The notes beneath the pieces were generated by a model. The model made no database searches. It saw only the letters and a program-made list of their open reading frames with translations, and was not told the origin of the DNA. From Myxococcota bacterium (GTDB lineage Bacteria; Myxococcota_A; UBA9160; SZUA-336): a stretch of 64,000 bases of DNA. Position numbers and translations under genes: made by a program. The stretch is taken from positions 19,549 through 83,548 of the forward strand of contig DATJZN010000024.1 in the NCBI GenBank assembly GCA_035499075.1, read 5' to 3'. This document shows, in pieces, positions 6,795 to 26,038 of the stretch (its first letter is position 1; each line of letters starts with the position of its first letter).

Positions 6795-8024
6795 ATGAAC
6801 CCACTCGGCGTCCATTCGGAAGTCGGAAAGCTGCGGACGGTCCTCGTCTGCCGGCCGGGACTTGCGCACCAGCGCTTGACCCCGGGCAACTGCAAGGACC
6901 TCTTGTTCGACGACGTGCTCTGGGTCCAGGAGGCGCAGAAGGACCACTACGACTTCGTGCTGAAGATGGAGCAGCGCGGCGTCGAGGTGCTCGACCTGCA
7001 CGACCTGCTCGCGCAGACGCTCGAGGCGAAGGACGCGCGCGCGTTCGTGCTCGACCGCCGCGTGACCGCGAACTCCGTCGGCCTGGGCACGGCGCGCCTC
7101 ATGCGCCCGTGGCTCGACGAGATGCCGGCGAAGCAGCTCGCGGAGCACCTGATCGGCGGCGTCGCGATCTCGGACTTGCCGGAGGCGGCGGTCCGCCTGC
7201 ACCTCACCGAGGCGTTCGGCGACGACGAGTTCCTGCTGCCGCCGATCCCGAACACGCTGTTCCAGCGCGATCCGTCGTGCTGGATCTACGGCGGCGTCAC
7301 GTGCAATCCCATGTACTGGCCCGCGCGCGCGCCCGAGACGCTGCTGCAGCGCACCGTGTACAAGTTCCACCCGCGCTTCCGCGACGCGGGCTTCCCCATC
7401 TGGTGGGGCGATTCGGACGAGGACTTCGAGAACGCGTCGTTCGAGGGCGGCGACGTCATGCCGATCGGCAAGGGCGTCGTGCTCGTGGGCATGGGCGAGC
7501 GCACCACGCGGCAGGCGGTCTTCCAGGTGGCGCAGGCGCTCTTCAAGGGCGGCGCGGCTTCGCGCGTGGTCGCGTGCCTCATGCCGCAGAGCCGCGCGGC
7601 GATGCACCTGGACACGGTGTTCACGTTCTGCGATCGCGACGTGGTGACGCTCTTCCGCGAGGTGGTGGACCAGATCCGCTGCTACAGCGCGCGGCCGACG
7701 AACGGCGACGGCGAGTTCGAGGTGCACGCGGAGACGAAGCCGCTGACCGAGGTCGTGACCGAGGCGCTCGAGCTGCCGAAGCTGCGCATCGTCGAGACCG
7801 GGGGCAACGCCTACCAGGCCGAGCGCGAGCAGTGGGACGACGGCAACAACGTGGTGGCGCTCGAGCCCGGCGTCGTCGTCGCCTACGACCGCAACACCTT
7901 CACCAACACGCGCCTGCGCAAGGCCGGCATCGAGGTCATCACCGTCCGCGGCTCCGAGCTGGGCCGCGGCCGCGGCGGCGGCCACTGCATGACCTGTCCG
8001 ATCTCGCGCGATCCCGCCTACTGA
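6795..8024 (+). CDS. arcA: Arginine deiminase
   Basis: Begins [30 protein letters not shown] and ends with the catalytic-Cys region [13 protein letters not shown]. The long ORF in the track (6072..8024) is an upstream extension. The internal ATG was placed by frame arithmetic. Confidence 0.9.
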
Positions 8025-8038
8025 CACGGAGTGACTCC

Positions 8039-9043
8039 ATGAGCTTCAACCTTCGCAACCGCTCCCTTCTGACCGTCCAGGACTACTCGCAGCGCGAGTT
8101 CCGCTACCTGCTCGACCTGGCGCGCGACCTGAAGCGCGCCAAGTACGCCAAGACCGAGCGCAAGGCGCTGGAGGGCAAGGAGATCGTGCTGATCTTCGAG
8201 AAGACCTCGACGCGCACGCGCTGCGCCTTCGAGGTGGCGTGCTACGACCAGGGCGCGCACGTGACGTACCTCGACCCCGCGGGCTCGCAGATCGGTCACA
8301 AGGAGTCGTTCAAGGACACGGCGCGCGTGCTCGGCCGCATGTTCGACGCCATCGAGTACCGCGGCGCCTCGCAGACGGGCGTAGAAGAACTCGCCAAGTG
8401 GGCGGGCGTGCCCGTCTACAACGGGCTCACCGACGAGTACCACCCGACCCAGATGATCGCGGACGTGATGACCATGCGCGAGCACAGCGACAAGCCGCTG
8501 TCCGAGATCCGCTACGCGTTCCTCGGTGACACGCGCTCGAACATGGGTCACTCGCTGATGATCGCCGGTTGTCTCATGGGCATGGACGTGCGGATCTGCG
8601 GACCCAAGCAGCTGTGGCCGGCCGACGATTACCAGAAGATCGCGCGCGAGCTCGAGCAGAGCTACGGCGCGAAGCTCACCATCACGGACGATGCTGCGGC
8701 GGCGGTGAAGGGCGTCGACTTCGTACACACCGACGTGTGGGTGTCGATGGGCGAGCCGAAGGAGGTCTGGAAGGAGCGCATCGGCCTGCTCCTGCCCTAC
8801 CAGGTGAACATGGACATGATGCGCAAGAGCGGGAACCCGGCGGTGAAGTTCATGCACTGCCTGCCCGCGTTCCACGACACGGAGACCACGCTCGGCAAAC
8901 AGATCGCCGAGACGTACGGACTGGCGGACGGGGTCGAAGTCACGAACGAGGTGTTCGAGTCCGAGCTGAACGTCGCGTTCGAGCAGGCCGAGAACCGCCT
9001 GCACACGATCAAGGCGTTGCTCGTCGCGACGCTCGGAGACTAG
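8039..9043 (+). CDS. arcB: Ornithine carbamoyltransferase (catabolic)
   Basis: Carbamoyl-phosphate binding motif STRTRCAFE and ornithine-binding HCLPAFHD. It lies directly downstream of arcA. Confidence 0.9.
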
Positions 9044-9046
9044 GCG

Positions 9047-9985
9047 ATGCGCATCGTGGTCGCGCTCGGCGGCAACGCGCTCCTGCGCCGCGGCGAGCCG
9101 ATGACCTTCGACGCGCAGCGCGCCAACGTGAAGATCGCCGCCGCGGCGCTCGCGCCGCTGGTCGGCGAGCACGAGCTCGTGATCACGCACGGGAACGGCC
9201 CGCAGGTGGGTCAGCTCGCGCAGATCGGCGCGCAGGTGAACCCCAAGGCGCCGCCGTCGCTCGACGTGCTGGGCGCCTTCACGCAGGGCGTGATCGCGTA
9301 CATGATCGAGCAGGAGCTCGGCAACCTGCTGCCGCTCGAGGTGCCGTTCGCGACGATCCTCACCATGGTCGAGGTCGATCCGAACGACCCGGCGTTCCGG
9401 GACCCGACGAAGTTCGTCGGCCCGATCTACGACAAGGCCGACGCCGAGCGCCTCGCGGCCGAGAAGAGTTGGGTCTTCAAGCCCGACGGCGACAAGTGGC
9501 GGCGCGTGGTGCCGTCGCCGCGGCCCAAGCAGATCTTCGAGATCCGCCCGGTGCGCTGGCTGCTCGAGCACAAGGTCGTCGTCATCTGCTCCGGCGGCGG
9601 CGGCATTCCCACCATGTACGAGCCGGGCTCGGATCGGAAGCTCGTGGGCGTCGAGGCCGTGGTCGACAAAGATCTGTGTACCGAGATTCTGGCGCGCGAG
9701 ATCGCCGCCGACCTGTTCATCATGGCGACCGACACCGAAGCGGTGTTTCTCGACTGGGGCAAACCCACGCAGCGTGCGATCCACCGCGTGAACCCGGACG
9801 AGCTGCTGCGCCACTCGTTCCCCGCCGGCTCGATGGGCCCGAAGGTCGAAGCGGCGTGTCACTTCGCCACGGCGACGGGCAAGACGGCGGCGATCGGCGC
9901 GCTGGCGGACATCGGCGCGATCGTGCGCGGCGAGAAGGGCACACTCGTCGACCGCCACTTCACCGGCTTGTCGGAGTACCGATGA
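9047..9985 (+). CDS. arcC: Carbamate kinase
   Basis: Starts [13 protein letters not shown], has the typical carbamate kinase length of 312 aa, and completes the arcABC order. Confidence 0.9.
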
Positions 9986-12327
9986 GCGCGGTTCCGTTCC
10001 AAGAGCTGCTCAAGATCGTGGTTATCGCCGACGGCGAGAACGCTCAGGTGCGCGAGCTCTGCGCGCGCATCTCGGCCGAGGGCTATCAGCTCGAAGTGAC
10101 TGCGTCGTTCCGGCGCGACGTGCCCGAGGACGCCGCCGTGGGGGCGTACATCGCGTGGATCGACGGCGACGAGCGCCGGGCCGCGGCGCGCGCGCTGGGG
10201 CGCGCGGTGCGCGAGGCGGGCTTCCGCACGCCGCTCTGGGCGCTCGCCGACTCGCACAAGATCTCGGACCTGGGCGCGTTCGAGATGATCGGCGAGGTGC
10301 AGGGCTACATCTATCTTGGCCAGCAGACGCCGAGCTACTACGCCAGGCAGGTCGTGGCGAGCCTCGTCGAGTACGGCACGAGCCTCCTGCCGCCGTTCTT
10401 CGGCGCGCTCGTCGCGTACGACCGCGCGGCGAACATCGAGTTCGACTGCCCGGGCCACCAGGGCGGCCAGTTCTACGCGAAGTCGCCCGCCGGCCAGCTC
10501 TTCTTCAAGCACTTCGGCGAGGGCATCTTCCGCAACGACCTGTGCAACGCCGACGTGGCGCTCGGCGACCTGTTGATCCACGAGGGCCCGGCGGTGCGCG
10601 CGCAGCAGCACGCAGCGCGCGTGTTCGGCGCCGACAAGACCTACTTCGTGCTGAACGGCACGAGCACGTCGAACAAGATCGTGACCGGCGCGCTTCTGCG
10701 CCCCGGCGACCTCGTGCTGTTCGACCGCAACAACCACAAGTCGCTGCACCAGGGTGCGCTCGTGCAGGCGGGCGCGACGCCGATCTACTTGCCCACGGCG
10801 CGCAACCCGTTCGGCATGGTCGGCGCCGTCGACTGGAGCGCCTGGGACGAGAAGTATCTGCGCGAGCAGATCCGCGCGAACCCGCGCGTCGCCGACGAGC
10901 GGCGCGCCGACGCGGAGCGCCCGTTCCGGCTCGCGTGCATCCAGCTCGCGACGTACGACGGAACCGTCTACAACGCGAAGAAGGTGCTCGAGAAGATCGG
11001 CCACCTGTGCGACTACGTGCTCTGGGACGAGGCGTGGATCGGCTACAACGCGTTCCACCCGCTGTTCGCGGACCACAGCCCCATGCGCATCGAGAAGCTC
11101 GGGCCGGAGATGCCGGGGCTGTTCTCGACGCAGTCGGTGCACAAGCAGGGCGCCGGCTTCTCGCAGGCGTCGCAGATCCACAAGCGCGACGAGCACGTCC
11201 GCGGCCAGCGCCGCTACGTGGAGCACAAGCGCTTCAACGAGTCGTACCTGATCCACGCCTCGACGTCGCCGTTCTACCCGCTGTTCGCGTCGCTCGACGT
11301 CAACGCGAAGGTGCACGAGGGCAAGACCGGCGAGATGCTCTGGGACCGCTGCATCGAGCTCGGGATCGAGGTGCGCAAGAAGCTGCGCGAGATCAAGCGC
11401 CACCACGAGCAGGTCGGTCTGTCCGCGCGGGAGCAGTGGTTCTTCGACCCGTTCGTGCCCGACGTCGTGACGGTGCGAAGCTCGCCGTTCACGGCCGACG
11501 CGACCGGCGTGCCGTGGGAGGAGCTGCCGACCGAGGTGCTGAAGCGCGAGCAGCAGTGCTGGAACTTCGCGCCCGACGCGCGCTGGCACGGCTACGCGGG
11601 CTACGCCGAAGGCTACGCGATGGTCGACCCGAACAAGCTGACCTTGCTCACGCCCGGCATCGACCGCAGGACCGGCGAGTATCTCGACTTCGGCGTGCCC
11701 GCGACGGTGCTCGCGAACTACCTCCGCGAGCAGCGCATCGTGCCCGAGAAGTGCGACCTGAACAGCATCCTCTTCCTCATGACCCCCGCCGAGGACGAGA
11801 GCAAGCTCAACACGCTCGTGGCGAAGCTCGTGAAGTTCAAGGACCTGTGGGACCGCGACGCCGCGCTGGCGGAGGCGCTGCCCGGCATCTGCGCCGCGAA
11901 CCCCGACCGCTACGCCGGCTACGGGCTGCGCCAGATCTGCAGCGAGATGCACGACTTCTACCGCAAGGCGAACGTGAAGGAGCTGCAGCGGAAGTGCTTC
12001 CGCGCGGCGAGCTTCCCCGAGCAGGCGCTCTCGTCACAAGAGGCGTATCGCGCGCTCGTCGGCAACGAGGTGGACTACCTGCCGCTGGATCAGGTGCGTG
12101 GCCGCATCGCCGCGACGCTCGCGCTGATCTACCCGCCGGGCATCGGCGTCGTCGTGCCGGGCGAGCGCTGGGACGACCGCGCGCAGCCGATGCTCGACTA
12201 CTTCCTCGCGTTCCAGGAGTCGTTCAACCGCTTCCCCGGCTTCAACTACGAAGTGCAGGGCGTGTTCCAGGAGCGCGTCGACGGGCGGATCAAGTTCCAC
12301 ACGTACGTGGTGTCGGAAGCGCGCTAG
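9982..12327 (+). CDS. Orn/Lys/Arg decarboxylase, inducible large type (fold-type I, PLP-dependent), paralog 1
   Basis: The ATG overlaps the arcC stop. Contains the motifs [18 protein letters not shown] and SVHKQ (PLP-Lys region), plus an N-terminal wing domain. Length is 781 aa. The ORF in the track (8569..12327) is an N-terminal over-extension. Confidence 0.85.
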
Positions 12328-14627
12328 CGCAGACACCACACGTGGTACTCGCCGTCCTTGAGCTGCGAGCCCTCGACTTCCTTCTCGAAGCCCGGGAACG
12401 CCTTGCCCCAGTCCTGCAAGGTGCGCAGGTAGCCGAGCCACGGGCCGTCCTCCGCGCCGACGTTCTCGCCGGGCATGACGATGGGAATGCCGGGCGGGTA
12501 GGGGATGACGCCGACGCCGACGGTGCGGTTCGCCATCTTGCGCAGCGGCAACAGCTCCGCGTCGCCGGCCTGCAGCTGGTGGAACGCGCGGCGCGGCGGC
12601 AGGACCGGCTTCGGCAGGTGGCCGAACGCCTGCGCCTGCCAGTGGTCCATCCGGCTCTTCTCCATGTGCGCGAAGATCTCGTCGCCCAGGTCGCGCAGGC
12701 CGAGCCCCGCGTAGCGCTCGGGCGCGAGGGACACGAGCCCGGGCAGCTCTTGCGCGAGCGGCGCGTTGCGGTCGTAGGCGCTCTTGAAGTCGAGCAGCAC
12801 GTTGATGAGCGTGGCCCACTTGCCCTTCGTGATGCCGATCGAGAAGAGCGGCAGGATCATGAAGTCGGTGGTGCGCGACGGCACGATGCCCTTTTCGCCG
12901 AGATACGCGCTCACCACGGCCGCGGGTACGCCGCGCTTCTCGAGCTTGCCGTCGTCCCCCATGCCCGGGCACACGATGCCGGCCTTGATCGGGTCGAGCA
13001 GGCAGTAGCCGTCGGGGATCCCCTCGAAGCCGTGCCACTTCTCGCCGGGGTGGAGCACCCAGCAGCTCGGCTCGTGCGCCAAGAGCTCGTGCGGCGCGTT
13101 CTCGAAGCGGTGCTTCTTCTTCGTCTTCGGGTCGGTGACGGTCGGCGCGTTCCAGGGCCAGAAGAACCACTCGCCCTTGGCGTCGAGCTCGCGGTGGCAG
13201 CGCGCGAGCGCCTGGCGGAAGCGCACCGCTTCGTCGATCACGTCCTGCGTCATGGCCTCGCCCGCGGGGCCGTCCATCATCGCTGCGCCGATCTCGTTCG
13301 ACGCGATGATCGCGTAGAGCGGCGAGGTGGTGGCCTGCATGCAGTACGACTCGTTGAAGCGGTGGTGGTCGATCGGATTGCGCCCGTTGCGCACGTGGAT
13401 GTACGACGACTGCGAGAGCGCAGCGAGCAGCTTGTGAGTCGAGTGAGTCGCGAAGACGGTCGGACCGTCCTTCGGGTGGTCGGCCGGGTCCCCGCGCATG
13501 GCGTAGCGGCCGCGGTACATCGGGTTGAAGCGCGCGTACGCGTACCACGCCTCGTCGAAGTGGATGCGGTCGACGCTGTCGTCGAGCAGCTCCTGCACGC
13601 GTTCCGCGTCGTAGCACATGCCGTCGTACGTGCAGTTCGTCACCACGGCGTACACCGGCTTCGCGTCCACGGCTTGCTTGCGCAGCGCGTGCTCCTGGAT
13701 CTTCTTCTTGATCGCCCGCGTTTCGAACTGTTGCGGCGGAATCGGGCCGATGATGCCGTAGCGGTTGCGCGTGGGCGTGAAGAACACGGGGATGCCGCCC
13801 GACAGGATCAGGCTCTGCTCGATCGACTTGTGGCAGTTGCGGTCGCACAGCGCGATCTGCCCGTCGGAGACGACGGCCCCGAAGATCGTGCGGTTCGACG
13901 CCGACGTGCCCACCAGCACGTGGTAGCTGCGGTGCGCGCCGAAGATGCGCGCCGCGTACTCCTCCGACTTCCCGATCGGGCCCGAATGGTCGAGCAGCGA
14001 GCCGAGCGCGCCGCGCTCGATGCCCGTGTCCGTGCGGAACAGGTTCTCGCCGTAGAAGTCGAACAGGATGCGCCCGACGGGCGACTTCGTGAACGCGACG
14101 CCGCCCTGGTGGCCGGGCGCCGCCCACGAGTACTCGCGCACCTCGTTGTAGCGGCCCAGCGCCTTCATGAACGGCGGCACCAGGTTGTCGAGATAGCGTC
14201 GGATCGCCGCGATCGCGCGGCCCGCGATGAGCGGCGCGGTGTCCTCGAGCATCCACACCGACTCGTCCGCGAGCTGCATGACTTCGACGGTGACGCTGTC
14301 GCGCACCGCCTGCGACGCGAGCAGGAAGATCGGGATCGCGGCGTTGCGCCGGCGGATCGTGCGCAGCAGCTCGAGCGCCTGCTCGTGCGAGTGCGAGTCG
14401 TTCTGGCCGAGGCACCAGTCGACGAAGATGCAGTCGATCGTAGCGTCCGAGACGACGACGGCGTGACCGTCGTCGTACGTCACGGCCTCGACGACCTCCA
14501 CGTCGCGCACGGCGAGCTCGTTCGCGAGCTCGCGGATGGCGCGTCCGCCCGCGGTGTCGGGGCGCGCCAGCTTGTCGTCGACGATCAAGAGCCGGCGCTT
14601 CAGGGCTTTCGAGGTGCGGCCGATCAT
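12324..14627 (-). CDS. Orn/Lys/Arg decarboxylase, inducible large type, paralog 2
   Basis: 767 aa. Contains WAAPGHQGGVAFTKSPVG and STHKLLAALSQSS. Convergent with paralog 1, with overlapping stop codons in GCTAGC. Confidence 0.85.
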   Translation of the reverse strand: MIGRTSKALKRRLLIVDDKLARPDTAGGRAIRELANELAVRDVEVVEAVTYDDGHAVVVSDATIDCIFVDWCLGQNDSHSHEQALELLRTIRRRNAAIPIFLLASQAVRDSVTVEVMQLADESVWMLEDTAPLIAGRAIAAIRRYLDNLVPPFMKALGRYNEVREYSWAAPGHQGGVAFTKSPVGRILFDFYGENLFRTDTGIERGALGSLLDHSGPIGKSEEYAARIFGAHRSYHVLVGTSASNRTIFGAVVSDGQIALCDRNCHKSIEQSLILSGGIPVFFTPTRNRYGIIGPIPPQQFETRAIKKKIQEHALRKQAVDAKPVYAVVTNCTYDGMCYDAERVQELLDDSVDRIHFDEAWYAYARFNPMYRGRYAMRGDPADHPKDGPTVFATHSTHKLLAALSQSSYIHVRNGRNPIDHHRFNESYCMQATTSPLYAIIASNEIGAAMMDGPAGEAMTQDVIDEAVRFRQALARCHRELDAKGEWFFWPWNAPTVTDPKTKKKHRFENAPHELLAHEPSCWVLHPGEKWHGFEGIPDGYCLLDPIKAGIVCPGMGDDGKLEKRGVPAAVVSAYLGEKGIVPSRTTDFMILPLFSIGITKGKWATLINVLLDFKSAYDRNAPLAQELPGLVSLAPERYAGLGLRDLGDEIFAHMEKSRMDHWQAQAFGHLPKPVLPPRRAFHQLQAGDAELLPLRKMANRTVGVGVIPYPPGIPIVMPGENVGAEDGPWLGYLRTLQDWGKAFPGFEKEVEGSQLKDGEYHVWCLR

Positions 14628-15982
14628 GCCTTCTCCTCCGAGTCACCGTGGCTCGTGCGAAGGAACACCCACACGGGCGCGGCGAGCAGCACCAGGATCA
14701 GCGACCACATGCCGGCCTCGGCGCCGGCGCCATAGATCGTGCCGAGCGAGAACACGAACGCGACCAGCGCCACCGGCGTGAACGGCCCCACCCGCAGCGC
14801 GCGCGAGATGGGCTTGCGCTGCACGAACAGCACGGCCTCCACCACCGAACAGAACACGTAGGGGATCATCGCGGCGTCGGTCGAGAGGTTGACCACGAGA
14901 TTGTAGAACGCCACGAACGCCGACGTGCCCGACGCGCTGAACAACACGAGCAAGGTCGACAGCGCCACCGAGACCGCGAGCCCCTGTGCCGCGACGCCGC
15001 GCGAGGACACGCGCGCGAAGATCGGCGGCATGGCGCCGTCTCGGGCCGCGGCCATCGGTACCTGCGAGAGCATGAGCGTCCAGCCGTTCAACGCGCCGAG
15101 CGACGAGACGATCGCCGCGAGCGCGATCACCGTCGCCGCCCACTCGCCCCACATGGCCCGTGCGGCGTCGGCGAACGGCGCCGAGGAGTGGCCCAGGGCT
15201 TCGCGCGGCAGCACGCCCATCACCACGGCCGTGCCCAGGATGTAGATCGCGGCGGAGACGAGCGTGCCGAGCACCGTCGCGCGCGGAATCGTGCGGCGCG
15301 GGTCGATCACGTCGCCCGCGGGGACCGTCGCGGACTCGATGCCGAGGAATGCGAACATGGTGAGCGGCGCCGTGGCCGCCAGCGCGGAGAGGAACGGCTC
15401 GCCCGTCGGGTTCACCGTGTCGAACGTGTGCCAGTCGACCCAGAACAGGCCGAGCGTCGAGATCGCAGCGAACGGCACGATCTTCGTGTAGGTCGTGACC
15501 GCCGCGAAGAGGCCCGCCTGCTTCACGCCGCGCATGTTGAGCAGCGCGACGCCCCACATCGCGCCGAGCGCGATCGCGATGCCGAGCGCGCGGTGGCCGC
15601 GCAGCGCGGGCACGAGCGACGCGAGATAGCCGACGAGCGCCGCCGCCATGGCGGGCAGCGAGGCCCAGATCGAGATCCAGTAGCCCCACGCGATCATGAA
15701 GCCCGCGAAGTGGCCGAAGCCCATGCGCGTGTACGCGTAAGGCCCGCCCGTCGCGGGCGCGATTCGCGCGAGCCGCGCGAACACGAGCCCGAGACACACG
15801 GCGCCCACGGCCATCACGGCCCAGCCGATCAGCGCCGTGGTGCCGTAGCGCGCGAGCGCGGCGGGCGCCACGAAGAAGCCCGAGCCCACCATGTTGCCGA
15901 TGACGAGCGCGGTCGACGTGGCGAGGCCGAGGCTCTGCCCGCCGGTGTCGCTCGTAGCAGCCGTGTCGGAAGCCGTCGCCAT
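14624..15982 (-). CDS. APC-family amino-acid/polyamine antiporter (AdiC/ArcD-like)
   Basis: Motifs IGNMVGSGFFVAPAALA, GGPYAYTRMGFGHFAGF and GWTLMLSQVPMAAARDGAMPPIFARV match AdiC-type arginine:agmatine antiporters. 452 aa with about 12 transmembrane segments. Confidence 0.8.
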   Translation of the reverse strand: MATASDTAATSDTGGQSLGLATSTALVIGNMVGSGFFVAPAALARYGTTALIGWAVMAVGAVCLGLVFARLARIAPATGGPYAYTRMGFGHFAGFMIAWGYWISIWASLPAMAAALVGYLASLVPALRGHRALGIAIALGAMWGVALLNMRGVKQAGLFAAVTTYTKIVPFAAISTLGLFWVDWHTFDTVNPTGEPFLSALAATAPLTMFAFLGIESATVPAGDVIDPRRTIPRATVLGTLVSAAIYILGTAVVMGVLPREALGHSSAPFADAARAMWGEWAATVIALAAIVSSLGALNGWTLMLSQVPMAAARDGAMPPIFARVSSRGVAAQGLAVSVALSTLLVLFSASGTSAFVAFYNLVVNLSTDAAMIPYVFCSVVEAVLFVQRKPISRALRVGPFTPVALVAFVFSLGTIYGAGAEAGMWSLILVLLAAPVWVFLRTSHGDSEEKA

Positions 15983-18229
15983 TCAGTCGGGCAGTGCGGC
16001 GTACTTGAAGAACGCCTGGGTCGCGTCGTCGGGCTCGCCGAAGTACTGCGTGTAGGTGTTGTAGATCTTCCCCGAGCGGTAGAGCTTGGACAGCGTGCGG
16101 TCGACCACGAGCCGGAAGTCGTCGTCGCCGCGCGCCGACACCAGCGCGATCGGCTCGTACGTGTATTGCCGGTCGAGCACGATCAGGTCGCCGGGGTGGT
16201 CGCTGTGCACCGCGGTGTCGAGCAGGATCGCGCGGTCGCCGAAGAACACGTCCGATTTCCTGCTCGTGACTCGCTCTACGCCTTCCTTGTAGGTGGCCAC
16301 GTTCGCGATCTCGGCGTCGACCTCGAACTGCGCGCGCTTCTTCGCGAGCCAGTCCTCGGCGGTCGTGCCGACCTGCGCGGAGAGCACGCGCTTGTCGAGC
16401 ACCTGCGCCAGGTTCGCGCGCCAGCGCGGCGAGTACGGCGGCTCGCGGCCGGACAGCACGGCCTTCAGGCGCTCGGGCGCATCGTGGCGGAGCAGCGCGC
16501 CGATGCCGCCGGGGAAGATGGGGATGGAGAACGCGACCTTCTCGCGGCGCTCGAGCGTCGCGGTCGAGGCGCCGCACAGGAGATCGATCTTGCCGGCGGC
16601 CACGTCGTCGAAGCGGTCGGTCGCGTCGACCGCGACCGTCTCGATCGCCAGGTCGGCGAGGCCGAGCTCGGCCTTCACGGCGTCCCCGATCAGCTTGCAC
16701 AGCGCGACGGAGTAGCCCGCCGGATTCCCCGACGCGTCCTGGTACGAGAACGGCCGCGCGTCGGTGCGGTGGCCGAGCCGCAGCTTGCCCGTCTCCTTGA
16801 TGCGGTCGAGGGTGCCGGCGTGCGCGGTGCCGGGCGCGGCGAGTGCGAGACCGAGCAGCGCGAGCGCGAGCGCCGCTGCTTGCGCCGCGGGCGCGGCCCG
16901 CCCCGCGGCCTTGTTCAGCTCGAACCGCGGCGCGAGGAAGCCGAAGATGACGAAGCCGAGCGCCATCACGATCGTGCCGCCGAGCACCGCGCTCGAGCCC
17001 GAGGCGTAGATCGCATACGTGCTGTAGAGCATCGCGACGACCGCGACGGCGACGTTGCGCCGGTACGCACCCGGCGCGACGCCCGCCTTCTGCATCATCA
17101 CGATCAGCGCCGACAGCGCGATGATGTACGGCACCACGTTCGTCACGACGGCCAGGTTCACGAGCACGCTGAACTGCTCGGAGAGCGACGGCGAGACGGT
17201 CGAGAGCGCCATCAGTGACTGCACCACGCCCATCACGATCATGCCGATGACCGGCGCGTCGCTCTTCGTGACCTGCGAGAAGAAGGACGGGAACATCCGG
17301 TCCTCGGCCGCCGACTTCGCGGTCTGCGCGATCGTGAACTGCCAGCCCAGGAGCGACCCCAGGCACGCCATGATCGCGAGCGCCATGATGATCGAGCCGA
17401 CCGCCGGGCTGAACATCTTCGCGTACACGAGCCCGAACGGGCCCGTCGACTTGGCGAGCTCCTCGTTCGGCACGATGCCCTGGATGACCGTCGTGGAGAG
17501 CACGTAGATCACCGCCGCGCCCAGCGTGCCGAGCATGCACGCGAGCGGCACGTTCCGCTTCGGGTTCTCGACGGCGGACGAGTTCTGCGCGGCCGACTCC
17601 ATGCCGAGGAACGCCCACAAGGTCAGCGCGATGCTCGAGCCGACGCCCGCGAGCGGCGTCATGCCCTTCGGGTTCCACGCCGCGGAGAACGTCGCCCCGC
17701 TGAACCAGAACCAGCCGATGAGCGACAGGCCGGCGACGGGGATGATGACGCCCCAGACGGTGATCGCGCCGAGGCGGCCCGTCACTTTCGGCCCGCCGAA
17801 GTTCGCGATCGTCGTGAGCCAGATGAGCCCGATCACGCTCGCGCACGTGGCCATGGGCGTGGCCGACATGCCGGGGAAGAAGGTGGCGAGATAGCCGACG
17901 GCCGAAATGGCGATCGCCACGTTCCCGATCGCGAGCGAGAAGAAGTACAGGTAGAACACCATGAAGAAGCCGGACTTCCCGTACGCCTCTTCGGCGTAGG
18001 CCGACATGCCGCCCGCGCGCTGGTTCAGCACGCCGGCCTGCGCGAAGCCGTAGGCGATCGCCATGGAGCCGACGGCGGTGACGCCCCACGAGAGCAGCGA
18101 GATCGCGCCCACTTGAGCCATGTTGGTCGGCAGCATGATGATGCCCGAGCCCATCATGTTGACGGCCACGATCACCGTCAGCTGGATGAGGCTCATCTTC
18201 TTCGTCTCAGCCATGGTGTCTCCCCTCAC
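15983..18229 (-). CDS. PotE/CadB-like APC antiporter fused to a C-terminal periplasmic solute-binding (PBP type 2, LAO-like) domain
   Basis: The N-terminal ~440 aa align closely with the E. coli PotE layout: LIQLTVIVAVNMMGSGIIMLPT, GWQFTIAQT and ends PRFELNK. A signal-peptide-like hydrophobic segment AAALALALLGLALAAPGTAHAG follows, then an SBP domain (LRLGHRTDARPFSYQD...). No stop codon lies between the two parts. An alternative start is at MAETKK, around 18214. Confidence 0.7.
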   Translation of the reverse strand: MRGDTMAETKKMSLIQLTVIVAVNMMGSGIIMLPTNMAQVGAISLLSWGVTAVGSMAIAYGFAQAGVLNQRAGGMSAYAEEAYGKSGFFMVFYLYFFSLAIGNVAIAISAVGYLATFFPGMSATPMATCASVIGLIWLTTIANFGGPKVTGRLGAITVWGVIIPVAGLSLIGWFWFSGATFSAAWNPKGMTPLAGVGSSIALTLWAFLGMESAAQNSSAVENPKRNVPLACMLGTLGAAVIYVLSTTVIQGIVPNEELAKSTGPFGLVYAKMFSPAVGSIIMALAIMACLGSLLGWQFTIAQTAKSAAEDRMFPSFFSQVTKSDAPVIGMIVMGVVQSLMALSTVSPSLSEQFSVLVNLAVVTNVVPYIIALSALIVMMQKAGVAPGAYRRNVAVAVVAMLYSTYAIYASGSSAVLGGTIVMALGFVIFGFLAPRFELNKAAGRAAPAAQAAALALALLGLALAAPGTAHAGTLDRIKETGKLRLGHRTDARPFSYQDASGNPAGYSVALCKLIGDAVKAELGLADLAIETVAVDATDRFDDVAAGKIDLLCGASTATLERREKVAFSIPIFPGGIGALLRHDAPERLKAVLSGREPPYSPRWRANLAQVLDKRVLSAQVGTTAEDWLAKKRAQFEVDAEIANVATYKEGVERVTSRKSDVFFGDRAILLDTAVHSDHPGDLIVLDRQYTYEPIALVSARGDDDFRLVVDRTLSKLYRSGKIYNTYTQYFGEPDDATQAFFKYAALPD

Positions 18230-18248
18230 TGACTCGTGAACGAATCAC

Positions 18249-20558
18249 TTACTCGCGGAGGCAATACAGCGCGTAGTACGGACGGCCGTCCTTGTCGGTC
18301 TTCACCTCGACGCCGTGCGTGTCGTGGCCGAAGCCGGGGAACCGCGCGTCGAAGGCCTCGAGCCCGAGCAGGAAGTCTCCCACCGCCCGCGTCGCCGGGC
18401 CGAAGCGCTCGCCCGGCATGAGCAGCGGGATGCCAGGCGGGTAGGGCACCACCTGCACCGCGAGCGTGCGGCCTTCGAGCTTGGCGGCGGGCACCTGCTC
18501 CACCTGGCGGTGCACGAGGCGCGCGAACGTGTCGCGCGGCGACAGCACGGGCTCGGGCAGGTTGCTGAACGCGCCGTCGAGGCTCTCGAGGACCTTGTGC
18601 TCGACGATCGCGGCGTGCTGCTCGGCGGCGAGCTCGCGCAGGCCGAGCTTCCCATAGCGCTCCGGGTAGTCGTCCACGAGCCCGGGCAGCACGCGTGCGA
18701 GCGGCGCGTTCGCGTCGTAGAGCTCCTTGAAGCGCATGAGCGCGGCGACGAGCGAGCCCCATTTGCCGCGCGTGATGCCGACGGAGAACAGCGCCAGGAA
18801 CGAGTACGGCTCGGTCTTCTCGACCACGATGCCTTGCGTGCCGAGGAACGCGGTGACGAGCGAGGCGGGAATGCCTTCCTTCGTCGGCTTGCCGTCGCGC
18901 CCGATGCCCGGCGTGAGCGTGGTGACCTTGATCGGGTCGAGCATGCAGTAGCGCGCGCCCAGGTCGCCGAAGCCGTGCCAGGCCTGGCCGGGCTTCAGGA
19001 TCCAGGCCTCGGGCGACGTCGCGAGGAAGTCGGCGTCGGCCTCGAGGAACGGCTTGCCGCCGGCTTCCTCGGCCTGCCAGCTCGCGAACCACCAGTCGCC
19101 CGACTTGCGGCGGTCGAGGTCCTTGCCGATGCGCAGCATCGCCTTGCGAAAGTCGATCGCCTCGCGGATGCACTCGTCGGTCAGCGCGGGGCCCGCGTCG
19201 GCCATCATCTTCGCGGACACGTCGGTCGACGCGATGATCGAGTACTGCGGCGAGGTCGAGGTGTGCATCATGAACGCCTCGTTGAAGAGCGCCGGCTCGA
19301 CGGGGATGCGGCCCTCGCGGATGTGGATCATCGACGCCTGCGAGAGCGCCGCGAGCAGCTTGTGAGTCGAGTGAGTCACCGTCACGGTCGCGTCTTTGGG
19401 CGAGCGCGCGCCGCGGTGCATGCCGTAGCGGCCCTCGTAGATCGGGTTGAAGCGCGCGTACGCGTACCACGCCTCGTCGTAGTGGATGCGGTCGACGCTC
19501 GCCGAGAATGCGCGGGTGGTGTGCTCCACGTCGTAGCAGAGCCCGTCGTAGGTGGAGTTGGTGAGCACCGCGAGCACGGGCTTGCCCTTGGCGCCGCGCG
19601 CGAGCGGGCTCTCGGCGACCTTGCGGCGCAGCATCTCGGGCTCGATCTCGCTCGAGGGCACGGGACCGATGACGCCGCGCGCGTTGCGCCGCGGGCGCAG
19701 GTAGACCGGGATCGCGCCGCTCATGTTGAGCGCGTAGTTGAGCGACTTGTGGCAATTGCGGTCGACGAACACGATGTCGCCGTCCGCGACGGCCGAGTGC
19801 AGGATGATCTCGTTCGACGCGGAGCTGCCGCCAACGGAGAAGAACGTGTGGTCGGCGCCGAACACGCGCGCGGCGAAGCGCTCCGCGGCGGCGATGGGGC
19901 CGGAGTGGTCGTTCAGCGAGCCGAGCGAGCCCACCGACACCGACAGATCCGAGCGCAGCATCTGCTCGCCGTAGAAGCCCAGGAACGCGCGCCCGACGGC
20001 GGTCTTCATGAACGCCGTGCCGCCGGTGTGACCCGGCGTGTGCCACGAGTACTCGTGCGTGTCGGCGAAGTTCGCGAGCTCGCCGAAGAACGGCGGCAGC
20101 ACCGTGTCGAGATACCGCTTGGCGGCGGCTTCGATTCGCCCCGCGATGAAGCTCGCGCTGTCCTCGGGCACCCAGATGTAGCCCTCGACCTGCTCCACGA
20201 TCTCGAGCGGCACCTGGCGCGTGGCCGCGCGGCTGGCGCCGATCAGCACCGGCAGGTTCGCGGCCTGGCGGCGGATGCGGGCGAGGATGCGCTTCGTCTG
20301 CTCGACGGCGGCGTCGTCCGCGGCCGCCAGGCCCCAGGCCAGCACCACGCACGAGAGCGCAGGGTGCGACTCGATCGCTGCTTCGGCGTCGGCGAGGCTG
20401 TTCGCGGCGAGCACCGGCCGGCCGAGCGCGCGCAGCGCGTCGACGATCTCCGCGGCGCTGCGCGCGACCGCCGAGTCCTCCGGCCCCCGTGCGCCGACGA
20501 CCAGCACGGGGAAGTTCGAGGCGAGTGCAGCCGGCATGGGCGTCGTGGTGTGGGGCAT
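18249..20558 (-). CDS. Orn/Lys/Arg decarboxylase, inducible large type, paralog 3
   Basis: Contains WHTPGHTGGTAFMKTAVG and THSTHKLLAALSQAS. 769 aa from MPHTTTPMPAAL. The ORF in the track extends spuriously upstream to 21533. Confidence 0.85.
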   Translation of the reverse strand: MPHTTTPMPAALASNFPVLVVGARGPEDSAVARSAAEIVDALRALGRPVLAANSLADAEAAIESHPALSCVVLAWGLAAADDAAVEQTKRILARIRRQAANLPVLIGASRAATRQVPLEIVEQVEGYIWVPEDSASFIAGRIEAAAKRYLDTVLPPFFGELANFADTHEYSWHTPGHTGGTAFMKTAVGRAFLGFYGEQMLRSDLSVSVGSLGSLNDHSGPIAAAERFAARVFGADHTFFSVGGSSASNEIILHSAVADGDIVFVDRNCHKSLNYALNMSGAIPVYLRPRRNARGVIGPVPSSEIEPEMLRRKVAESPLARGAKGKPVLAVLTNSTYDGLCYDVEHTTRAFSASVDRIHYDEAWYAYARFNPIYEGRYGMHRGARSPKDATVTVTHSTHKLLAALSQASMIHIREGRIPVEPALFNEAFMMHTSTSPQYSIIASTDVSAKMMADAGPALTDECIREAIDFRKAMLRIGKDLDRRKSGDWWFASWQAEEAGGKPFLEADADFLATSPEAWILKPGQAWHGFGDLGARYCMLDPIKVTTLTPGIGRDGKPTKEGIPASLVTAFLGTQGIVVEKTEPYSFLALFSVGITRGKWGSLVAALMRFKELYDANAPLARVLPGLVDDYPERYGKLGLRELAAEQHAAIVEHKVLESLDGAFSNLPEPVLSPRDTFARLVHRQVEQVPAAKLEGRTLAVQVVPYPPGIPLLMPGERFGPATRAVGDFLLGLEAFDARFPGFGHDTHGVEVKTDKDGRPYYALYCLRE

Positions 20559-20566
20559 GGCGATTC

Positions 20567-22333
20567 CTAGAAGTTGAAGTTCATGTACAGGTACCCGGTG
20601 ATCCAAGTGGCGGAGCCGTTCACCGCTTGCGTGAAGCCCTTGTTGGGGTTGGCCATGCCGACGGTCGCCGTGATCGACCACCAGTTCGTCATGGTGATGT
20701 CGAAGATGAGATCGACTTCGTCGGCCAGCGCGCGGCTGCTCACCGCCGACGGCGTCAACCCGAACGACTGGTTCCGGTTGTCGAGCAGGAAGCGGTAGTA
20801 GATCAAGTTCGTGGTGAGCCAGTCTCTCGGCTTCACCGTGAGACGCACCTGGTGCGATAGGAGATTGCTGTTCGACAGCACGTACTCGCCCAGGACCTCG
20901 CCCTGGAACCACGAGCCCCAGTCCGGAAGCCCAGTGAACAGCCCGTCGAACGCGTGCGTGCCGCCGCCGCTGAAGGACGCGTAGCGGTAGCCGAGCTGCG
21001 GCGTCCACGCGACCTGCGAGAGCTGGTACGCCGCGCCCGCGTACCAGCCGTACGCCGCCGAGAGACCCGACGACTCGGCGTTGCTCTCGCGCACGAAGGA
21101 GGCCTTGTACGAGAAGTCGGGCAGGAACGGGAACGGGTTCGCCTCGGTGTACACGTACGCGCCGTTCATGCCGTCGCGCGTGGCGATCCGCGAGTTGTAG
21201 ATGTGGAAGTACATGAAGCCGAGCTTCAGGTGCTTCATGAAGAAGTCGTCGGTCGCCCACTCCATGCGCTCGCCGAACAGCTCGGTGTTGGTGCTCGGAT
21301 GGTCGTTGTACTTCAGGTGGAAGGCCTCGAGCGTCAGCTCCTTCAACGTGAGCTTCGCGATCGCGGTGGCCTTGAACGCCTTGCGCGCCGACAGCCAGTT
21401 CGCGCCGCGGCCCGAGCAGTCCTGCCCGCCGTCCCAGAACAAGAGGCCATCGAACACCTGGTAGTTCTGGTTGCCGCCCGAGATCTCCAGCGCGTTGTGG
21501 CCGAGCTTGGGAAAGAGGTCGGCCGACTTCCACGCGAGATACGCGCTCTCGAGCGTGTAGTCACTCGTGGTGCCGTGCGCGTTGCAGACGGGGCCGTCGG
21601 GCTGGCTCGCGGTCATCGAGAAGATGCCGGAGACGCGGCCCTGCACCGTGCCGAACGCGTCCTCCGGACCGAGCCCGATGCGCGCGTTCAGGCCGGCCTC
21701 GTTCGAGTGCTCGAACCAGAAGTCGGCCTTGTCCACGGGCCCGAACGACCACTTCCCCCCGAAGCCGGGGTTGCCCTGGCCGGGGATGTACATCTGCAGG
21801 TTCAACGTCGGCTCGAGGTAGAGCGGCCCGAGCCCGATCTCGCCGAAGCCGAGCGTCTGCGGCAGGCGCGCGTGCTCGTCCGCCGGCGGACCGCCGGCCT
21901 CGCCCACGGTGAGCGTGATACCGCGCGGGCCGAAGCCCAGCGAGAAGCCCGAGCTCGTGCCCTTCATCTCGATGCGCACGCCCTTGTCGTTGCGCATCAC
22001 GATCACGCCCGCGCCGCTGCCGACGGTGAGGCCCGTCGACACGCCGGTGAAGTCGCCGTTCAGGTCCTCCGCCTTCGTGAGCCCGGTGACTTCGCCCTCG
22101 GCCTGCATCGACGCGGCGCCCACTGCGCCCAGCACGAAGCCGTCGACGCGCACGGGGTAGGTCTTGCCCTGGAACTCGAGCGTCGAAGCGCCCCAGCTGA
22201 AGCCGACGCCGACCGTCGCGGTCTTGCCGCGGAACGTGATGTGGCCCGCCGAGGCCGCGGGCGCCTGCGCGTGCGCCTGCGCGGCGAACGAGAGCGCGAG
22301 CGCCAAGCTCGCGACGAACGCGCGGCGGCTCAT
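20567..22333 (-). CDS. Outer-membrane beta-barrel protein (porin-like) with an N-terminal periplasmic domain
   Basis: Signal peptide MSRRAFVASLALALSFAAQAHA. Residue-by-residue composition is Gly/aromatic-rich, typical of beta strands. The C-terminus ends ...YLYMNFNF, an aromatic terminal residue. Confidence 0.6.
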   Translation of the reverse strand: MSRRAFVASLALALSFAAQAHAQAPAASAGHITFRGKTATVGVGFSWGASTLEFQGKTYPVRVDGFVLGAVGAASMQAEGEVTGLTKAEDLNGDFTGVSTGLTVGSGAGVIVMRNDKGVRIEMKGTSSGFSLGFGPRGITLTVGEAGGPPADEHARLPQTLGFGEIGLGPLYLEPTLNLQMYIPGQGNPGFGGKWSFGPVDKADFWFEHSNEAGLNARIGLGPEDAFGTVQGRVSGIFSMTASQPDGPVCNAHGTTSDYTLESAYLAWKSADLFPKLGHNALEISGGNQNYQVFDGLLFWDGGQDCSGRGANWLSARKAFKATAIAKLTLKELTLEAFHLKYNDHPSTNTELFGERMEWATDDFFMKHLKLGFMYFHIYNSRIATRDGMNGAYVYTEANPFPFLPDFSYKASFVRESNAESSGLSAAYGWYAGAAYQLSQVAWTPQLGYRYASFSGGGTHAFDGLFTGLPDWGSWFQGEVLGEYVLSNSNLLSHQVRLTVKPRDWLTTNLIYYRFLLDNRNQSFGLTPSAVSSRALADEVDLIFDITMTNWWSITATVGMANPNKGFTQAVNGSATWITGYLYMNFNF

Positions 22334-22825: not shown

Positions 22826-24094
22826 CTAGACGCGCGTGCCGCGCGTCTCGGGCAGGAGCCACACCCACGCCGCACCGAACAACGCGAAGAACGCCGCGAG
22901 GGAGATTCCGCCCGCGAGACCGTAGCGCTGCGCTACGCGCGCGATTGCGAGCGGTGTCACGAACTGTACGCCGCGCGCGAGATTGAACGCCGCGCCCATC
23001 GCCGTGTTCCGCACTTCGGTCGGGAAGAGCTCGGTGAAGATCGGACCGTAGCCGGAGAAGCTCCCCGTGCCCACGCCGACCAGGAACATGAAGCACAGCG
23101 TGAGTCCCGGCCAGCTCGAGATCGCGCCCCAGAACCACGTGACGGCGAGCAGCCCGATCGCCCACACCACCGAGAAGCCCGAGTATGCGACGCGCCGGCC
23201 GAGCCGATCCGCCGCGAAGCCGAAGCCGAGGTAGCCGAGGAAGCCGCCCGCCTGAGTCACGAGCAGCCACTCGCCCGACTTCGCCATCGAGAGTGACAGC
23301 TGGTCGTAGAGATACTTCGGCAGCCAAGTGTACGTGAACCAGTACGCCGACATGCCGCACAGCGCGAGCACGAACCCGAGCGCGAAGCGCCGCCGCAGCA
23401 CCGGCACGGACGCGAGCTCCGCCACGCGCGCGCGCACGCTCGGCGGCGCGGCGCCGCGCTGCGCGAGCCACACGTCGGACTCCGGCATCGAGCCGCGGAT
23501 CACCACGACGAGCAGCGCGGGCAGAGAGGACAGGAAGAAGCAGGCGCGCCAGCCCCAGTCCGGCCCGAGCGAGCTCTCGAGCGCGGGCGCCGCGAAGCCG
23601 CCGACCAACGCCGCGAGCGCGATGCCGAGCGGCGCGCCCGTCTGCATGAGCGCCGCGTAGCGCGCGCGCGTGTGCGGCGCGAACGTCTCGCCGATCAGCG
23701 TCTGGCCGGTCGCCCACTCGCCGCCGACGCCCAGGCCGGAGAGCACGCGGAACGCGAGCAGCGACCACGGGCCCGCGGCCGTGCCGCACAGGAATGCGCC
23801 CAGCGAGTACACGAGGATCGTCCACGACAGCACGCTGCGGCGACCGAAGCGGTCCGCGAGCGCGCCGAAGACGATGCCGCCGAGCGCCGTGGCGGAGAGC
23901 GATGCGCCGAGCAGGAGCGAGAGCGCCGTCTCGTCCAGCCCGAGCGAGCGCTGGATCGGCACGAGCAGGAACGAGAACAGCATCAAGTCGTAGAAGTCGA
24001 ACAGCCAGCCCGCCCAGCACATCGCGAGGATCCACCAGTGCTGGCGCGTCGGGCGCTCGCTCTCGTTCAACAAGCTCGGGGTTCGGGTCGCCAC
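22826..24094 (-). CDS. Major facilitator superfamily transporter
   Basis: 12-transmembrane hydropathy pattern. MFS motif GALADRFGRRSVL in the loop between TM2 and TM3. A GTG start is inferred just upstream of the first transmembrane segment (HWWILAMCWAGW). Confidence 0.7.
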   Translation of the reverse strand: MATRTPSLLNESERPTRQHWWILAMCWAGWLFDFYDLMLFSFLLVPIQRSLGLDETALSLLLGASLSATALGGIVFGALADRFGRRSVLSWTILVYSLGAFLCGTAAGPWSLLAFRVLSGLGVGGEWATGQTLIGETFAPHTRARYAALMQTGAPLGIALAALVGGFAAPALESSLGPDWGWRACFFLSSLPALLVVVIRGSMPESDVWLAQRGAAPPSVRARVAELASVPVLRRRFALGFVLALCGMSAYWFTYTWLPKYLYDQLSLSMAKSGEWLLVTQAGGFLGYLGFGFAADRLGRRVAYSGFSVVWAIGLLAVTWFWGAISSWPGLTLCFMFLVGVGTGSFSGYGPIFTELFPTEVRNTAMGAAFNLARGVQFVTPLAIARVAQRYGLAGGISLAAFFALFGAAWVWLLPETRGTRV

Positions 24095-24139
24095 GGGGAA
24101 TGGATCGTACTTCGCGCGGGCGCGCGGTAGAGTCGTCGC

Positions 24140-25390: not shown

Positions 25391-25435
25391 CCGGTCCGCG
25401 CGGGCCTGAGATATCCTCGAAGGGCGGAGGCCGGG

Positions 25436-26038
25436 TTGGATTTCCATCGGATCTTCGATCGATTTCGCAGCGGGCGCTCGCGCAACCGCGGCGTCCGCCG
25501 CGCGTCTCCGCGGCCGCGTGACTCGCGCACCGACACCGAGTTCGTGCACACCGGGCCGCCGAGCTACCCGCCGCTCGCGCCGAGCCACCCGCCCGTGCCG
25601 CCGGTCGCGCCGCCGCCGGTCGCGCCGCCGCTGCCGGAGCCCGTCGTGCCGCGCGCCGCTCCCGCGCAGCCGGCGCAGCCCGCGAGCGACGCGGGGGCCA
25701 CGCGCATCCTGTCTCTGCCGGTGTCCGCCCAGGGCGCCGTCGCCGCCGTGTTGATCTGCATCGAGGGCAAGCTCGAGGGCGAGGTGTACAAGGTGCGCGA
25801 CGGCGAGAACCGGCTCGGCCGCGCGCCGGGCGCCGAGATCCGCCTCGACGACCGCGACGAGACGGTCTCGCGCGAGCACGCGCTCATCATCCACCGCGAC
25901 GGCGCGTTCGGCATCAAGCCGCTCAAGACCGACAACCCCACGTTCGTGAACGGCGAGGAAGTCGAGGGCGGCGCCTCGCTGTCGGACGGCGACCAGATCC
26001 GGGTCGGCCGCAGCACCTTCCGCTTCCGGGTCGCGTAG
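25436..26038 (+). CDS. FHA-domain protein
   Basis: C-terminal FHA fold: RLGRAPGAEIRLDDRDETVSREHALIIHRDGAFGIKPLKTDNPTFVNGEEV...IRVGRSTFRF. The N-terminal half is Pro-rich and low-complexity. Confidence 0.7.
   Translation: MDFHRIFDRFRSGRSRNRGVRRASPRPRDSRTDTEFVHTGPPSYPPLAPSHPPVPPVAPPPVAPPLPEPVVPRAAPAQPAQPASDAGATRILSLPVSAQGAVAAVLICIEGKLEGEVYKVRDGENRLGRAPGAEIRLDDRDETVSREHALIIHRDGAFGIKPLKTDNPTFVNGEEVEGGASLSDGDQIRVGRSTFRFRVA

Follow-up and report, generated by a model that had tools for sequence, protein, structure and literature searches.

Does a single gene of a Myxococcota bacterium really join a putrescine-ornithine antiporter to a periplasmic solute-binding protein (SBP), and if so, do the two parts work together? 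The question is raised by one open reading frame (ORF) on contig DATJZN010000024.1 (assembly GCA_035499075.1), in a 64-kb stretch of DNA that is referred to throughout as the window. In this ORF a gene for a PotE-type antiporter of the APC family runs on into an SBP domain. The analysis points to a potE-SBP module that occurs widely among soil Proteobacteria, Acidobacteriota and Gemmatimonadota, and to an undescribed form of binding-protein-assisted secondary transport.

A continuous potE-SBP reading frame

In the ORF listing of the window the frame appears as a minus-strand ORF of 748 amino acids (15983..18229), counted from a GTG. The true start is almost certainly ATG 18214, because the ribosome-binding site (RBS) GAGGGGAGA sits 4-5 nt upstream of it; read along the minus strand, the TAA of the preceding gene is followed by 21 nt, GAGGGGAGA, cacc and the ATG. 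Counted from this ATG, the product has 743 amino acids and is 100% identical to database protein P0001. That the N-terminal ~440 residues are PotE-like, as was first proposed from the sequence alone, was borne out by the NCBIfam models, in which both PotE equivalog cutoffs were passed over residues 7-441 (NF007938, 677.8 bits against a cutoff of 409; TIGR04299, 565.5 against 560). Pfam AA_permease_2 covers residues 13-410 (158 bits) and SBP_bac_3 (PF00497) is found at residues 483-732 (78.1 bits against a cutoff of 26.4). In the AlphaFold2 (AF2) model of the fusion there are 12 long helices ahead of residue 435, and Foldseek matches the antiporter part to AdiC (5j4i; TM-score 0.82, 35% identity). 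Moreover, the stand-alone PotE of locus L081 (442 amino acids) is 70% identical to the window protein across residues 1-442. The frame is also uninterrupted past the end of PotE, where PRFELNKAAGRAAPAAQAAALALALLGLALAAPGTAHAGTLDRIKETGKLRLGHRTDARPFSYQD reads as first reported, with no stop codon at the junction (...GFLAPRFELNKAAGRAAPAAQAAALALALLGLALAAPGTAHAGTLDRIKETGKLRLGH...). Indeed, residues 425-492 contain neither a stop codon nor an in-frame ATG, GTG or TTG.

A frame of this kind could be a sequencing or assembly artefact, in which two separate genes were merged by an indel or by the loss of a stop codon. In its favour, the split state is found in the closest SBP relatives and in several close genomes (Dyella, L076-L080; L086), and frameshifts do occur in long-read metagenome-assembled genomes (MAGs) of this family. 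However, the SBP part has no in-frame start codon of its own, the identical 743-residue protein is recorded from two contigs, and the linker is a well-formed signal-peptide-like segment with n-, h- and c-regions rather than translated intergenic DNA. More than 100 other fused sequences also exist. A whole-protein search, a check that the sequence-only reading had suggested, returned at least 120 fused protein clusters (90% identity level) of 692-775 amino acids and 60-78% identity, all of which contain both Pfam domains. Fused genes are present in isolate genomes, including many Paraburkholderia and among these a closed chromosome (Paraburkholderia sp. A1BS-2L chromosome 4), and also in an Ottowia MAG. 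A sequencing-error origin was rejected on the basis of the fused homologues, the isolate genomes and the missing internal start; it is hardly credible, and we are as good as certain that the translational fusion is real. The architecture had at first been taken for a rare one, and with at least 126 fused clusters and 25 of 80 species-level loci fused it is better described as unreported.

Origin of the linker

The relationship between the two parts becomes clear when the junction is compared with loci L086-L088. These match the window operon gene for gene (a 584-residue porin-like protein, decarboxylase, potE, SBP, second APC antiporter, decarboxylase), with potE and SBP split, and their SBP is 75% identical to the window SBP domain. 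In these loci potE ends with ...PRFALGTVAASQPAAARAA and a stop codon, which is followed by a gap of 13 nt that holds an RBS (GAGGAGG), and the SBP then starts as MRLTRLSVALAAGFALCAAVPSHA-GTLDRIKQ. The window linker reads PRFELNKAAGRAAPAAQ-AAALALALLGLALAA-PGTAHA-GTLDRIKE, with the helix breakers P461/G462 and the small residues A464-H-A466. A closer inspection reveals that the end of the stand-alone signal peptide of L086 (AAVPSHA, followed by GTLDRIK) aligns with the position of the cleavage motif in the window. Because of this comparison the linker is read as an old SBP signal peptide; at the level of sequence it demonstrably consists of the PotE tail and the h- and c-regions of a former SBP signal peptide. 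The signal-peptide-like segment that had been noticed inside the ORF therefore has an n-h-c layout before the mature start GTLDRIK, and is homologous to the signal peptides of the stand-alone orthologues. Alignments of the fused homologues show the linker to be hypervariable in sequence and length yet always hydrophobic, while conservation is high in the antiporter part and moderate in the SBP part.

The C-termini of PotE and AdiC are cytoplasmic, with which the AdiC structures agree. The linker segment is for this reason predicted to lie with its N-terminus inside and its C-terminus outside (N-in/C-out), an orientation that would fit export and the earlier suggestion that a hydrophobic segment places the SBP in the periplasm. 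A Met is kept at the old SBP start in the fused homologues P0021, P0022, P0027, P0033, P0034, P0041, P0071, P0116 and P0117 (e.g. ...GARAMVAVALL...), and therefore internal initiation could still yield a separate SBP precursor there. The window gene has no counterpart of this retained codon.

Split relatives and distribution of the module

An exhaustive search with the SBP domain only found many stand-alone SBPs of 300-330 amino acids, with 40-51% identity across the full domain. A word-indexed profile search found stand-alone SBPs of up to 76% identity, with P0397 and P0424 75-76% identical to the window SBP domain. In 8 of 10 stand-alone neighbourhoods the SBP gene lies 13-59 nt 3′ of a PotE-length APC gene (442-449 amino acids). 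The remaining two (P0392, P0484) are on error-prone long-read contigs where the APC gene is uncalled or present as a fragment only. Decarboxylases of the Orn/Lys/Arg (OKR) family flank the module in 9 of these 10 neighbourhoods, and an Alginate_exp-type porin and/or arcA-arcB-arcC are found in several. The fusion is a Rosetta stone for this widespread module.

The 80 best species-level genome loci were checked for a stop codon between potE and SBP. Fused genes were found in 25 (Paraburkholderia, Ottowia, Acidobacteriota, and MAGs of Gemmatimonadales and Burkholderiales) and split genes, with gaps of 3-48 nt, in 54 (the Pseudomonas fluorescens/brassicacearum/frederiksbergensis group, Rhizobium leguminosarum/pisi/metallidurans, Variovorax, Ferrimonas and Dyella), a ratio of 25:54 that is not to be trusted because the locus ranking is biased. 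The profile search was built mainly from stand-alone SBPs and returns mostly stand-alone forms. On the long-read MAG contigs L073, L075, L089 and L094 the genes for decarboxylase, PotE and SBP contain several frameshifts, so that fused or split calls from assemblies of this type are unreliable. An excess of in-frame arrangements among split loci (47/52, L001-L070) was considered as a sign of stop-codon toggling or readthrough. It was set aside as a likely ranking artefact, since tblastn high-scoring segment pairs cross in-frame stops and such loci rank higher, and an independent sample gave 1/5. Were the excess real, it would point to toggling by the gain and loss of stop codons.

In a neighbour-joining tree of 294 SBP domains, fused and split forms are interleaved (at least 41 changes, compared with ~88 when labels are shuffled), and the nearest relatives of the window SBP are stand-alone proteins. 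Because the two states are interleaved, fusion and fission have taken place many times.

It may be that the SBP serves some other partner, such as an ABC importer, chemoreceptor or sensor kinase encoded elsewhere, and that the fusion only secures co-expression with the decarboxylase island, the polyprotein being cleaved. The public label of the stand-alone forms, 'amino acid ABC transporter substrate-binding protein', is in keeping with this, as is a pocket like that of the Glu/Asp binder DEBP/GltI, which is of the ABC type; moreover, the fusion alone calls for no physical interaction if the SBP is cut off. However, ABC transporter genes were found in none of the 10 sampled stand-alone SBP neighbourhoods, nor were any found in the 64-kb window, in which no ABC signature (LSGGQ-type) motif occurs anywhere. 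Every sampled member of the SBP subfamily adjoins an APC gene or APC fragments, and this holds across three phyla (Proteobacteria, Acidobacteriota and Gemmatimonadota). The subfamily also has a conserved insert of its own, and potE and SBP have been fused independently many times. We therefore regard another partner as unlikely, and consider it probable that the SBP works with PotE, whether cleaved or tethered.

Cleavage or tethering of the SBP

Does the SBP remain attached to the antiporter? The linkers of 120 fused proteins were compared with those of 162 stand-alone orthologues, aligned on the mature-start T of TLD. The two sets are alike at signal-peptidase position -1, where 75% of the fused and 74% of the stand-alone proteins have Ala. 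At position -3, Ala is found in 62% and 45% respectively, and at position -2 in 20% and 50%; the fused set otherwise has varied or polar residues at -2, and often has Pro at -4 to -6. The median c-region has 5 residues in both, the median h-region 15 in fused and 13 in stand-alone proteins, and an (A/V/S)-x-A site is present in 89% and 92%. In the window protein the short h-region, the Pro breaker and the A-H-A abut the conserved GTLDRIK. For this reason, and given a partnership between PotE and the SBP, we lean towards a predicted cleavage by signal peptidase I after A466. Proteolytic release had been raised as a possibility by the sequence-only reading; the comparison backs it as plausible, in that the n-h-c layout is present and positions -1 and -3 hold small residues as strictly as in real signal peptides.

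Some observations sit less comfortably with cleavage. The h-region is slightly longer in fused than in stand-alone proteins (p = 0.03), which could mean a drift towards a membrane anchor. The (A/V/S)-x-A site is found in 40 of 47 independent clades against 33.2 +/- 2.7 after shuffling of composition, a modest enrichment among Ala-rich linkers. As this shuffle test is weakly significant, the case for cleavage rests on the position-specific comparison with signal peptides. The AF2 model of the full protein has a pTM of 0.63 and the arrangement of its two domains is not fixed.

An uncleaved signal anchor would give an antiporter of 13 transmembrane (TM) helices with a permanently tethered periplasmic SBP domain, like OpuA and GlnPQ, and such a tether would raise the local concentration of SBP at the mouth of the transporter very high. 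This arrangement would suit a single ORF without an internal start codon, the helix predicted at residues 444-457 and the slightly longer h-region of the fused proteins. Tethered substrate-binding domains (SBDs) are also said to have been described by van der Heide and Poolman in 2002 as an established arrangement in ABC importers. However, the predicted helix has only 14 residues (pLDDT 52-64) and is followed by disorder at residues 458-465. The h-region of ~15 residues, the Pro/Gly breaker and the A-x-A at the domain boundary are as in the cleaved signal peptides of the orthologues, and a tether would be very short, with usually 0-4 residues between the motif and the folded domain. Frequent switching between fused and split forms would also be easier to grasp if the mature products were equal. 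A permanent anchor is the main alternative to cleavage, but the less likely of the two.

The SBP domain and its ligand

The SBP domain is modelled with a pLDDT of ~95 as a bilobal type-II fold. It had been assigned to the LAO/His-binding kind, an assignment that did not hold: its nearest solved relative is not LAO/HisJ but the Glu/Asp-binding DEBP/GltI (2ia4/2vha; Foldseek to DEBP 2ia4, TMt 0.85, rmsd 2.5). The AF2 model also superposes, by Foldseek, on Arg/Lys-binding relatives. Matches to AncCDT raised the possibility of a CDT-like enzyme, which was set aside since binding proteins rank best among the matches and the triad that holds the ligand is complete.

The hallmarks of the subfamily are found in the stand-alone proteins too. 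They comprise an invariant Cys pair, an FSIPIF motif, a W-R insert of 25-30 residues and a C-terminal FGEPD...FF...LPE. The Cys pair (C506-C547) would form a disulfide in the periplasm. Within the insert, which has a low pLDDT, the W is present in 100% of fused and 91% of stand-alone proteins and the R in 100% and 94%, and the W598-R599 insert might act in docking or as a lid. The contacts to the alpha-carboxylate and alpha-ammonium groups of a ligand are likewise conserved: R556/R557 (84-96%), T617/T618 (82-92%) and D660 (D/E in 96-97%) align with DEBP R97, T140 and D182. These positions are taken to correspond to LAO R77, T121 and D161. Pocket residues, Cys pair and W-R insert are kept equally in fused and split forms.

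The conservation of the residues for both alpha groups suggests that the ligand is an alpha-amino acid and not the amine product. Genomic context points to ornithine as this ligand, because in most related loci potE(-SBP) is directly preceded by an orthologue of the window ornithine decarboxylase (ODC; 74-79% identity). There is evidence to the contrary on both counts of pocket and context. The equivalents of DEBP R24 and R75 are kept (R483, 79-87%; R534, 90-92%), as are D485, Y642 and E687, and together with R556/557 the pocket retains all three Glu-binding arginines of DEBP, a poor fit to a purely cationic ligand such as ornithine. Binding of ornithine or arginine is therefore not assured. 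Moreover, the decarboxylase directly upstream of the window potE::SBP gene is not the ODC, which lies ~3.7 kb off on the other strand.

A conserved pocket might also belong to a periplasmic sensor that gates the antiporter allosterically on ligand or low pH, in the way of ionotropic glutamate receptors or the domains of BvgS-type kinases. SBP_bac_3 folds do serve as sensor domains in channels and kinases, the acid-resistance antiporters AdiC and GadC are pH-gated, and the conserved W-R insert might provide contacts. However, in the split forms the SBP is made as a protein that diffuses freely, and allosteric domains are seldom of that sort; the residues for binding alpha-amino acids are conserved as in transport SBPs, and the porin of the module suggests a flux pathway. 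A role as a sensor is very unlikely.

Genomic context in the window

The features of the fusion and of the genes around it are collected in Table 1. The two operons converge, arcABC-ODC on the plus strand and porin to DC2 on the minus strand, and meet with overlapping stop regions at 12324-12327. In the former, the start ATG of the ODC overlaps the arcC stop; arcABC is recurrently linked to the potE-SBP module in relatives. In the latter, neither the decarboxylase DC1 nor the antiporter APC2 reaches any NCBIfam equivalog cutoff. The best match of DC1 is AdiA (780 bits against a cutoff of 1167) and that of APC2 is AdiC (305 bits against 574).

Table 1. Coordinates of the potE::SBP fusion, its parts and the neighbouring genes in the window.
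Feature	Coordinates	Strand	Basis
Porin-like protein, Alginate_exp family; first gene of the operon	20567..22333	-	Pfam PF13372, 39.8 bits
DC1, Orn/Lys/Arg-family pyridoxal phosphate (PLP) decarboxylase; start 8 nt after porin stop	18249..20558	-	Pfam OKR_DC_1_N, OKR_DC_1, OKR_DC_1_C
RBS GAGGGGAGA, 4-5 nt 5′ of ATG	18219..18227	-	Direct sequence reading
potE::SBP fusion coding sequence, 743 amino acids	15983..18214	-	ATG 18214-18212; stop TGA 15985-15983
PotE-type APC (LeuT-fold) antiporter core, residues 1-431, 12 TM helices, end ...APRF	16922..18214	-	NCBIfam, AF2/Foldseek
Cytoplasmic tail / n-region of internal signal sequence, residues 432-445, ELNKAAGRAAPAAQ, with K435 and R439	16880..16921	-	Matches PotE C-terminal tail of split relatives
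Hydrophobic h-region / putative TM13, residues 446-460, AAALALALLGLALAA, 15 residues	16835..16879	-	Sequence
c-region, signal-peptidase-I-type motif P-G-T-A-H-A, residues 461-466; predicted cut A466/G467	16817..16834	-	Sequence comparison
Mature SBP_bac_3 domain, residues 467-743, start GTLDRIKETGKL...	15986..16816	-	Pfam PF00497, fold model
Cys506, first of invariant Cys pair	16697..16699	-	Cys in 100% of fused, 99% of stand-alone proteins
Cys547, second of invariant Cys pair, aligns with DEBP C88	16574..16576	-	Alignment
Subfamily-specific SBP insert, residues 578-606, DAPERLKAVLSGREPPYSPRWRANLAQVL, invariant W598-R599	16397..16483	-	Missing from DEBP in pairwise alignment
APC2, second APC antiporter; ATG abuts fusion TGA (TGAATG)	14624..15982	-	AdiC-like
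DC2, AdiA-like decarboxylase; overlaps APC2 stop by 4 nt	12324..14627	-	NF011603, 1055 bits against cutoff 1167; Pfam
Ornithine decarboxylase (SpeC/SpeF subfamily), last of arcABC-ODC operon	9982..12327	+	NF010092, 929 bits against cutoff 794
arcA (arginine deiminase), arcB (ornithine carbamoyltransferase), arcC (carbamate kinase); arcA/arcB starts approximate	6897..9985	+	Pfam ADI, OTCace_N/OTCace, AA_kinase

Together these genes make up an arginine/ornithine-to-amine island (6897-22333) with three OKR-family decarboxylases within 10.5 kb, and its gene junctions are tightly coupled (TGAATG, ATGA overlaps, 8-nt gaps). The Alginate_exp (AlgE-type) porin recurs with the module across phyla (L001, L004, L008, L009, L044, L067, L076, L079, L090, L092), and a dedicated outer-membrane channel for substrate or product is therefore suggested. 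Beside the island are an MFS transporter within the minus-strand ORF 22826-25894, a PP2C-type phosphatase (24140-25390, plus strand) and a protein with VWA and FHA domains (26041-27369, plus strand). A GH1 glycosidase is encoded at 5397-6629 on the minus strand.

A proposed mechanism and its implications

How might the fusion have arisen, and how would it work? Adjacent and co-operating potE and SBP genes may have been fused by loss of the stop codon, the intergenic spacer and the start codon between them. The old SBP signal peptide would then have become an internal N-in/C-out signal after TM12, with the C-terminal domain exported via Sec/YidC. A cut by signal peptidase I would leave PotE with the stub of a 13th helix and one free SBP per antiporter, so that the end products of the cleaved fusion would be those of the split form. 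The operon porin would let the amino acid in, and the SBP would bind it by its alpha-carboxylate and alpha-ammonium groups and present it to outward-facing PotE. PotE would finally exchange it for the amine product of the adjacent PLP decarboxylase, whose reaction would use up a cytoplasmic proton. The whole chain, from the fusion through an SBP-PotE partnership and signal peptidase I cleavage to hand-over, is put forward tentatively, at somewhat less than even odds.

With the same reserve, potE-SBP may be the first binding-protein-dependent APC/LeuT-fold transporter and the first SBP-assisted precursor/product antiporter, its fused versions being polyproteins that would be cut at an internal signal peptide, with fused and split states interconverting freely. 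In the full-text literature no description of an APC/PotE-SBP fusion or partnership was found; InterPro and TCDB lay outside this search and may catalogue the architecture without comment. Public annotation names the fused proteins 'putrescine-ornithine antiporter' and the split SBPs 'ABC transporter substrate-binding protein'. Where an 'amino acid ABC transporter substrate-binding protein' is encoded beside potE, the label is probably wrong in hundreds of cases. Before TAXI-GltS was added in 2025, only TRAP and TTT transporters were known as SBP users; all such carriers are elevator-type, some feature of the elevator may be required, and further classes have been called for (PMC12344293). If true, our reading contradicts the proposal that SBPs work only with elevator-type secondary carriers (PMC12344293). 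As PotE is a LeuT-fold rocking-bundle carrier, a PotE-SBP partnership would test the elevator prerequisite. It would also pose a puzzle: the SBP would have to deliver to the outward-facing state of the carrier, although the counter-substrate must leave through that state too. Tractable hosts are at hand, with split pairs in the Pseudomonas fluorescens group and Rhizobium and fused genes in Paraburkholderia. In Rhizobium, aluminium/acid stress is reported to place a potE of this sort among the most highly induced genes; the report does not mention the SBP, and such induction may give a physiological read-out (PMC8909678).

Comparison with known systems

For the antiporter, one of the closest known systems is SpeF-PotE of E. 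coli (TC 2.A.3.2, APA family). The N-terminal 431 residues of the window protein are a PotE equivalog, and in both a decarboxylase is paired with a precursor/product antiporter, an ODC being found directly upstream in most related loci. E. coli PotE has ~439 amino acids and 12 TM helices and is not known to have a binding protein. The window protein, by contrast, has 743 amino acids, with an SBP fused to the antiporter (or next door in relatives) and a porin in the operon. The closest solved structure to the membrane part is the LeuT-fold arginine/agmatine antiporter AdiC (5j4i, 3l1l, 3ob6), which lacks any extracytoplasmic domain or partner; among the PDB structures searched there was no PotE structure and no APC+SBP chain. 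The SBP part shares its bilobal fold and its Arg/Thr/Asp set for binding the alpha groups with DEBP/GltI and other SBP_bac_3 proteins (LAO/HisJ, ArgBP, AncCDT-1). It differs from DEBP/GltI in being only 23-24% identical, in its W-R insert and invariant Cys pair, and in its link to an APC rather than an ABC transporter.

Two kinds of system resemble the fusion in its architecture. In the ABC importers GlnPQ and OpuA, an SBP_bac_3-type domain is likewise covalently joined to a membrane transporter via a hydrophobic segment. These are ATP-driven and their SBDs remain attached, whereas the window protein has neither a nucleotide-binding domain nor an ABC permease and its linker looks cleavable. 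The Bradyrhizobium cytochrome b-c1 polyprotein FbcH, which Thony-Meyer et al. reportedly found in 1991 to be cleaved at an internal signal-peptide-like sequence, is also a polytopic membrane protein followed by a periplasmic protein in one ORF, with an internal signal-like sequence between them. The proteins and their function are different, and cleavage was demonstrated for FbcH whereas for the window fusion it is predicted.

In its proposed mode of transport, the module is most like TRAP (DctPQM/SiaPQM), TTT (TctABC) and TAXI-GltS, all of which couple a secondary carrier genetically to an SBP, either soluble or fused. For TAXI-GltS, too, the case was built on translational coupling and natural fusions (PMC12344293). 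However, those carriers are elevator-type and use DctP, TAXI or Bug SBPs, whereas the window pairs a LeuT-fold rocking-bundle carrier with an SBP of the SBP_bac_3 family.

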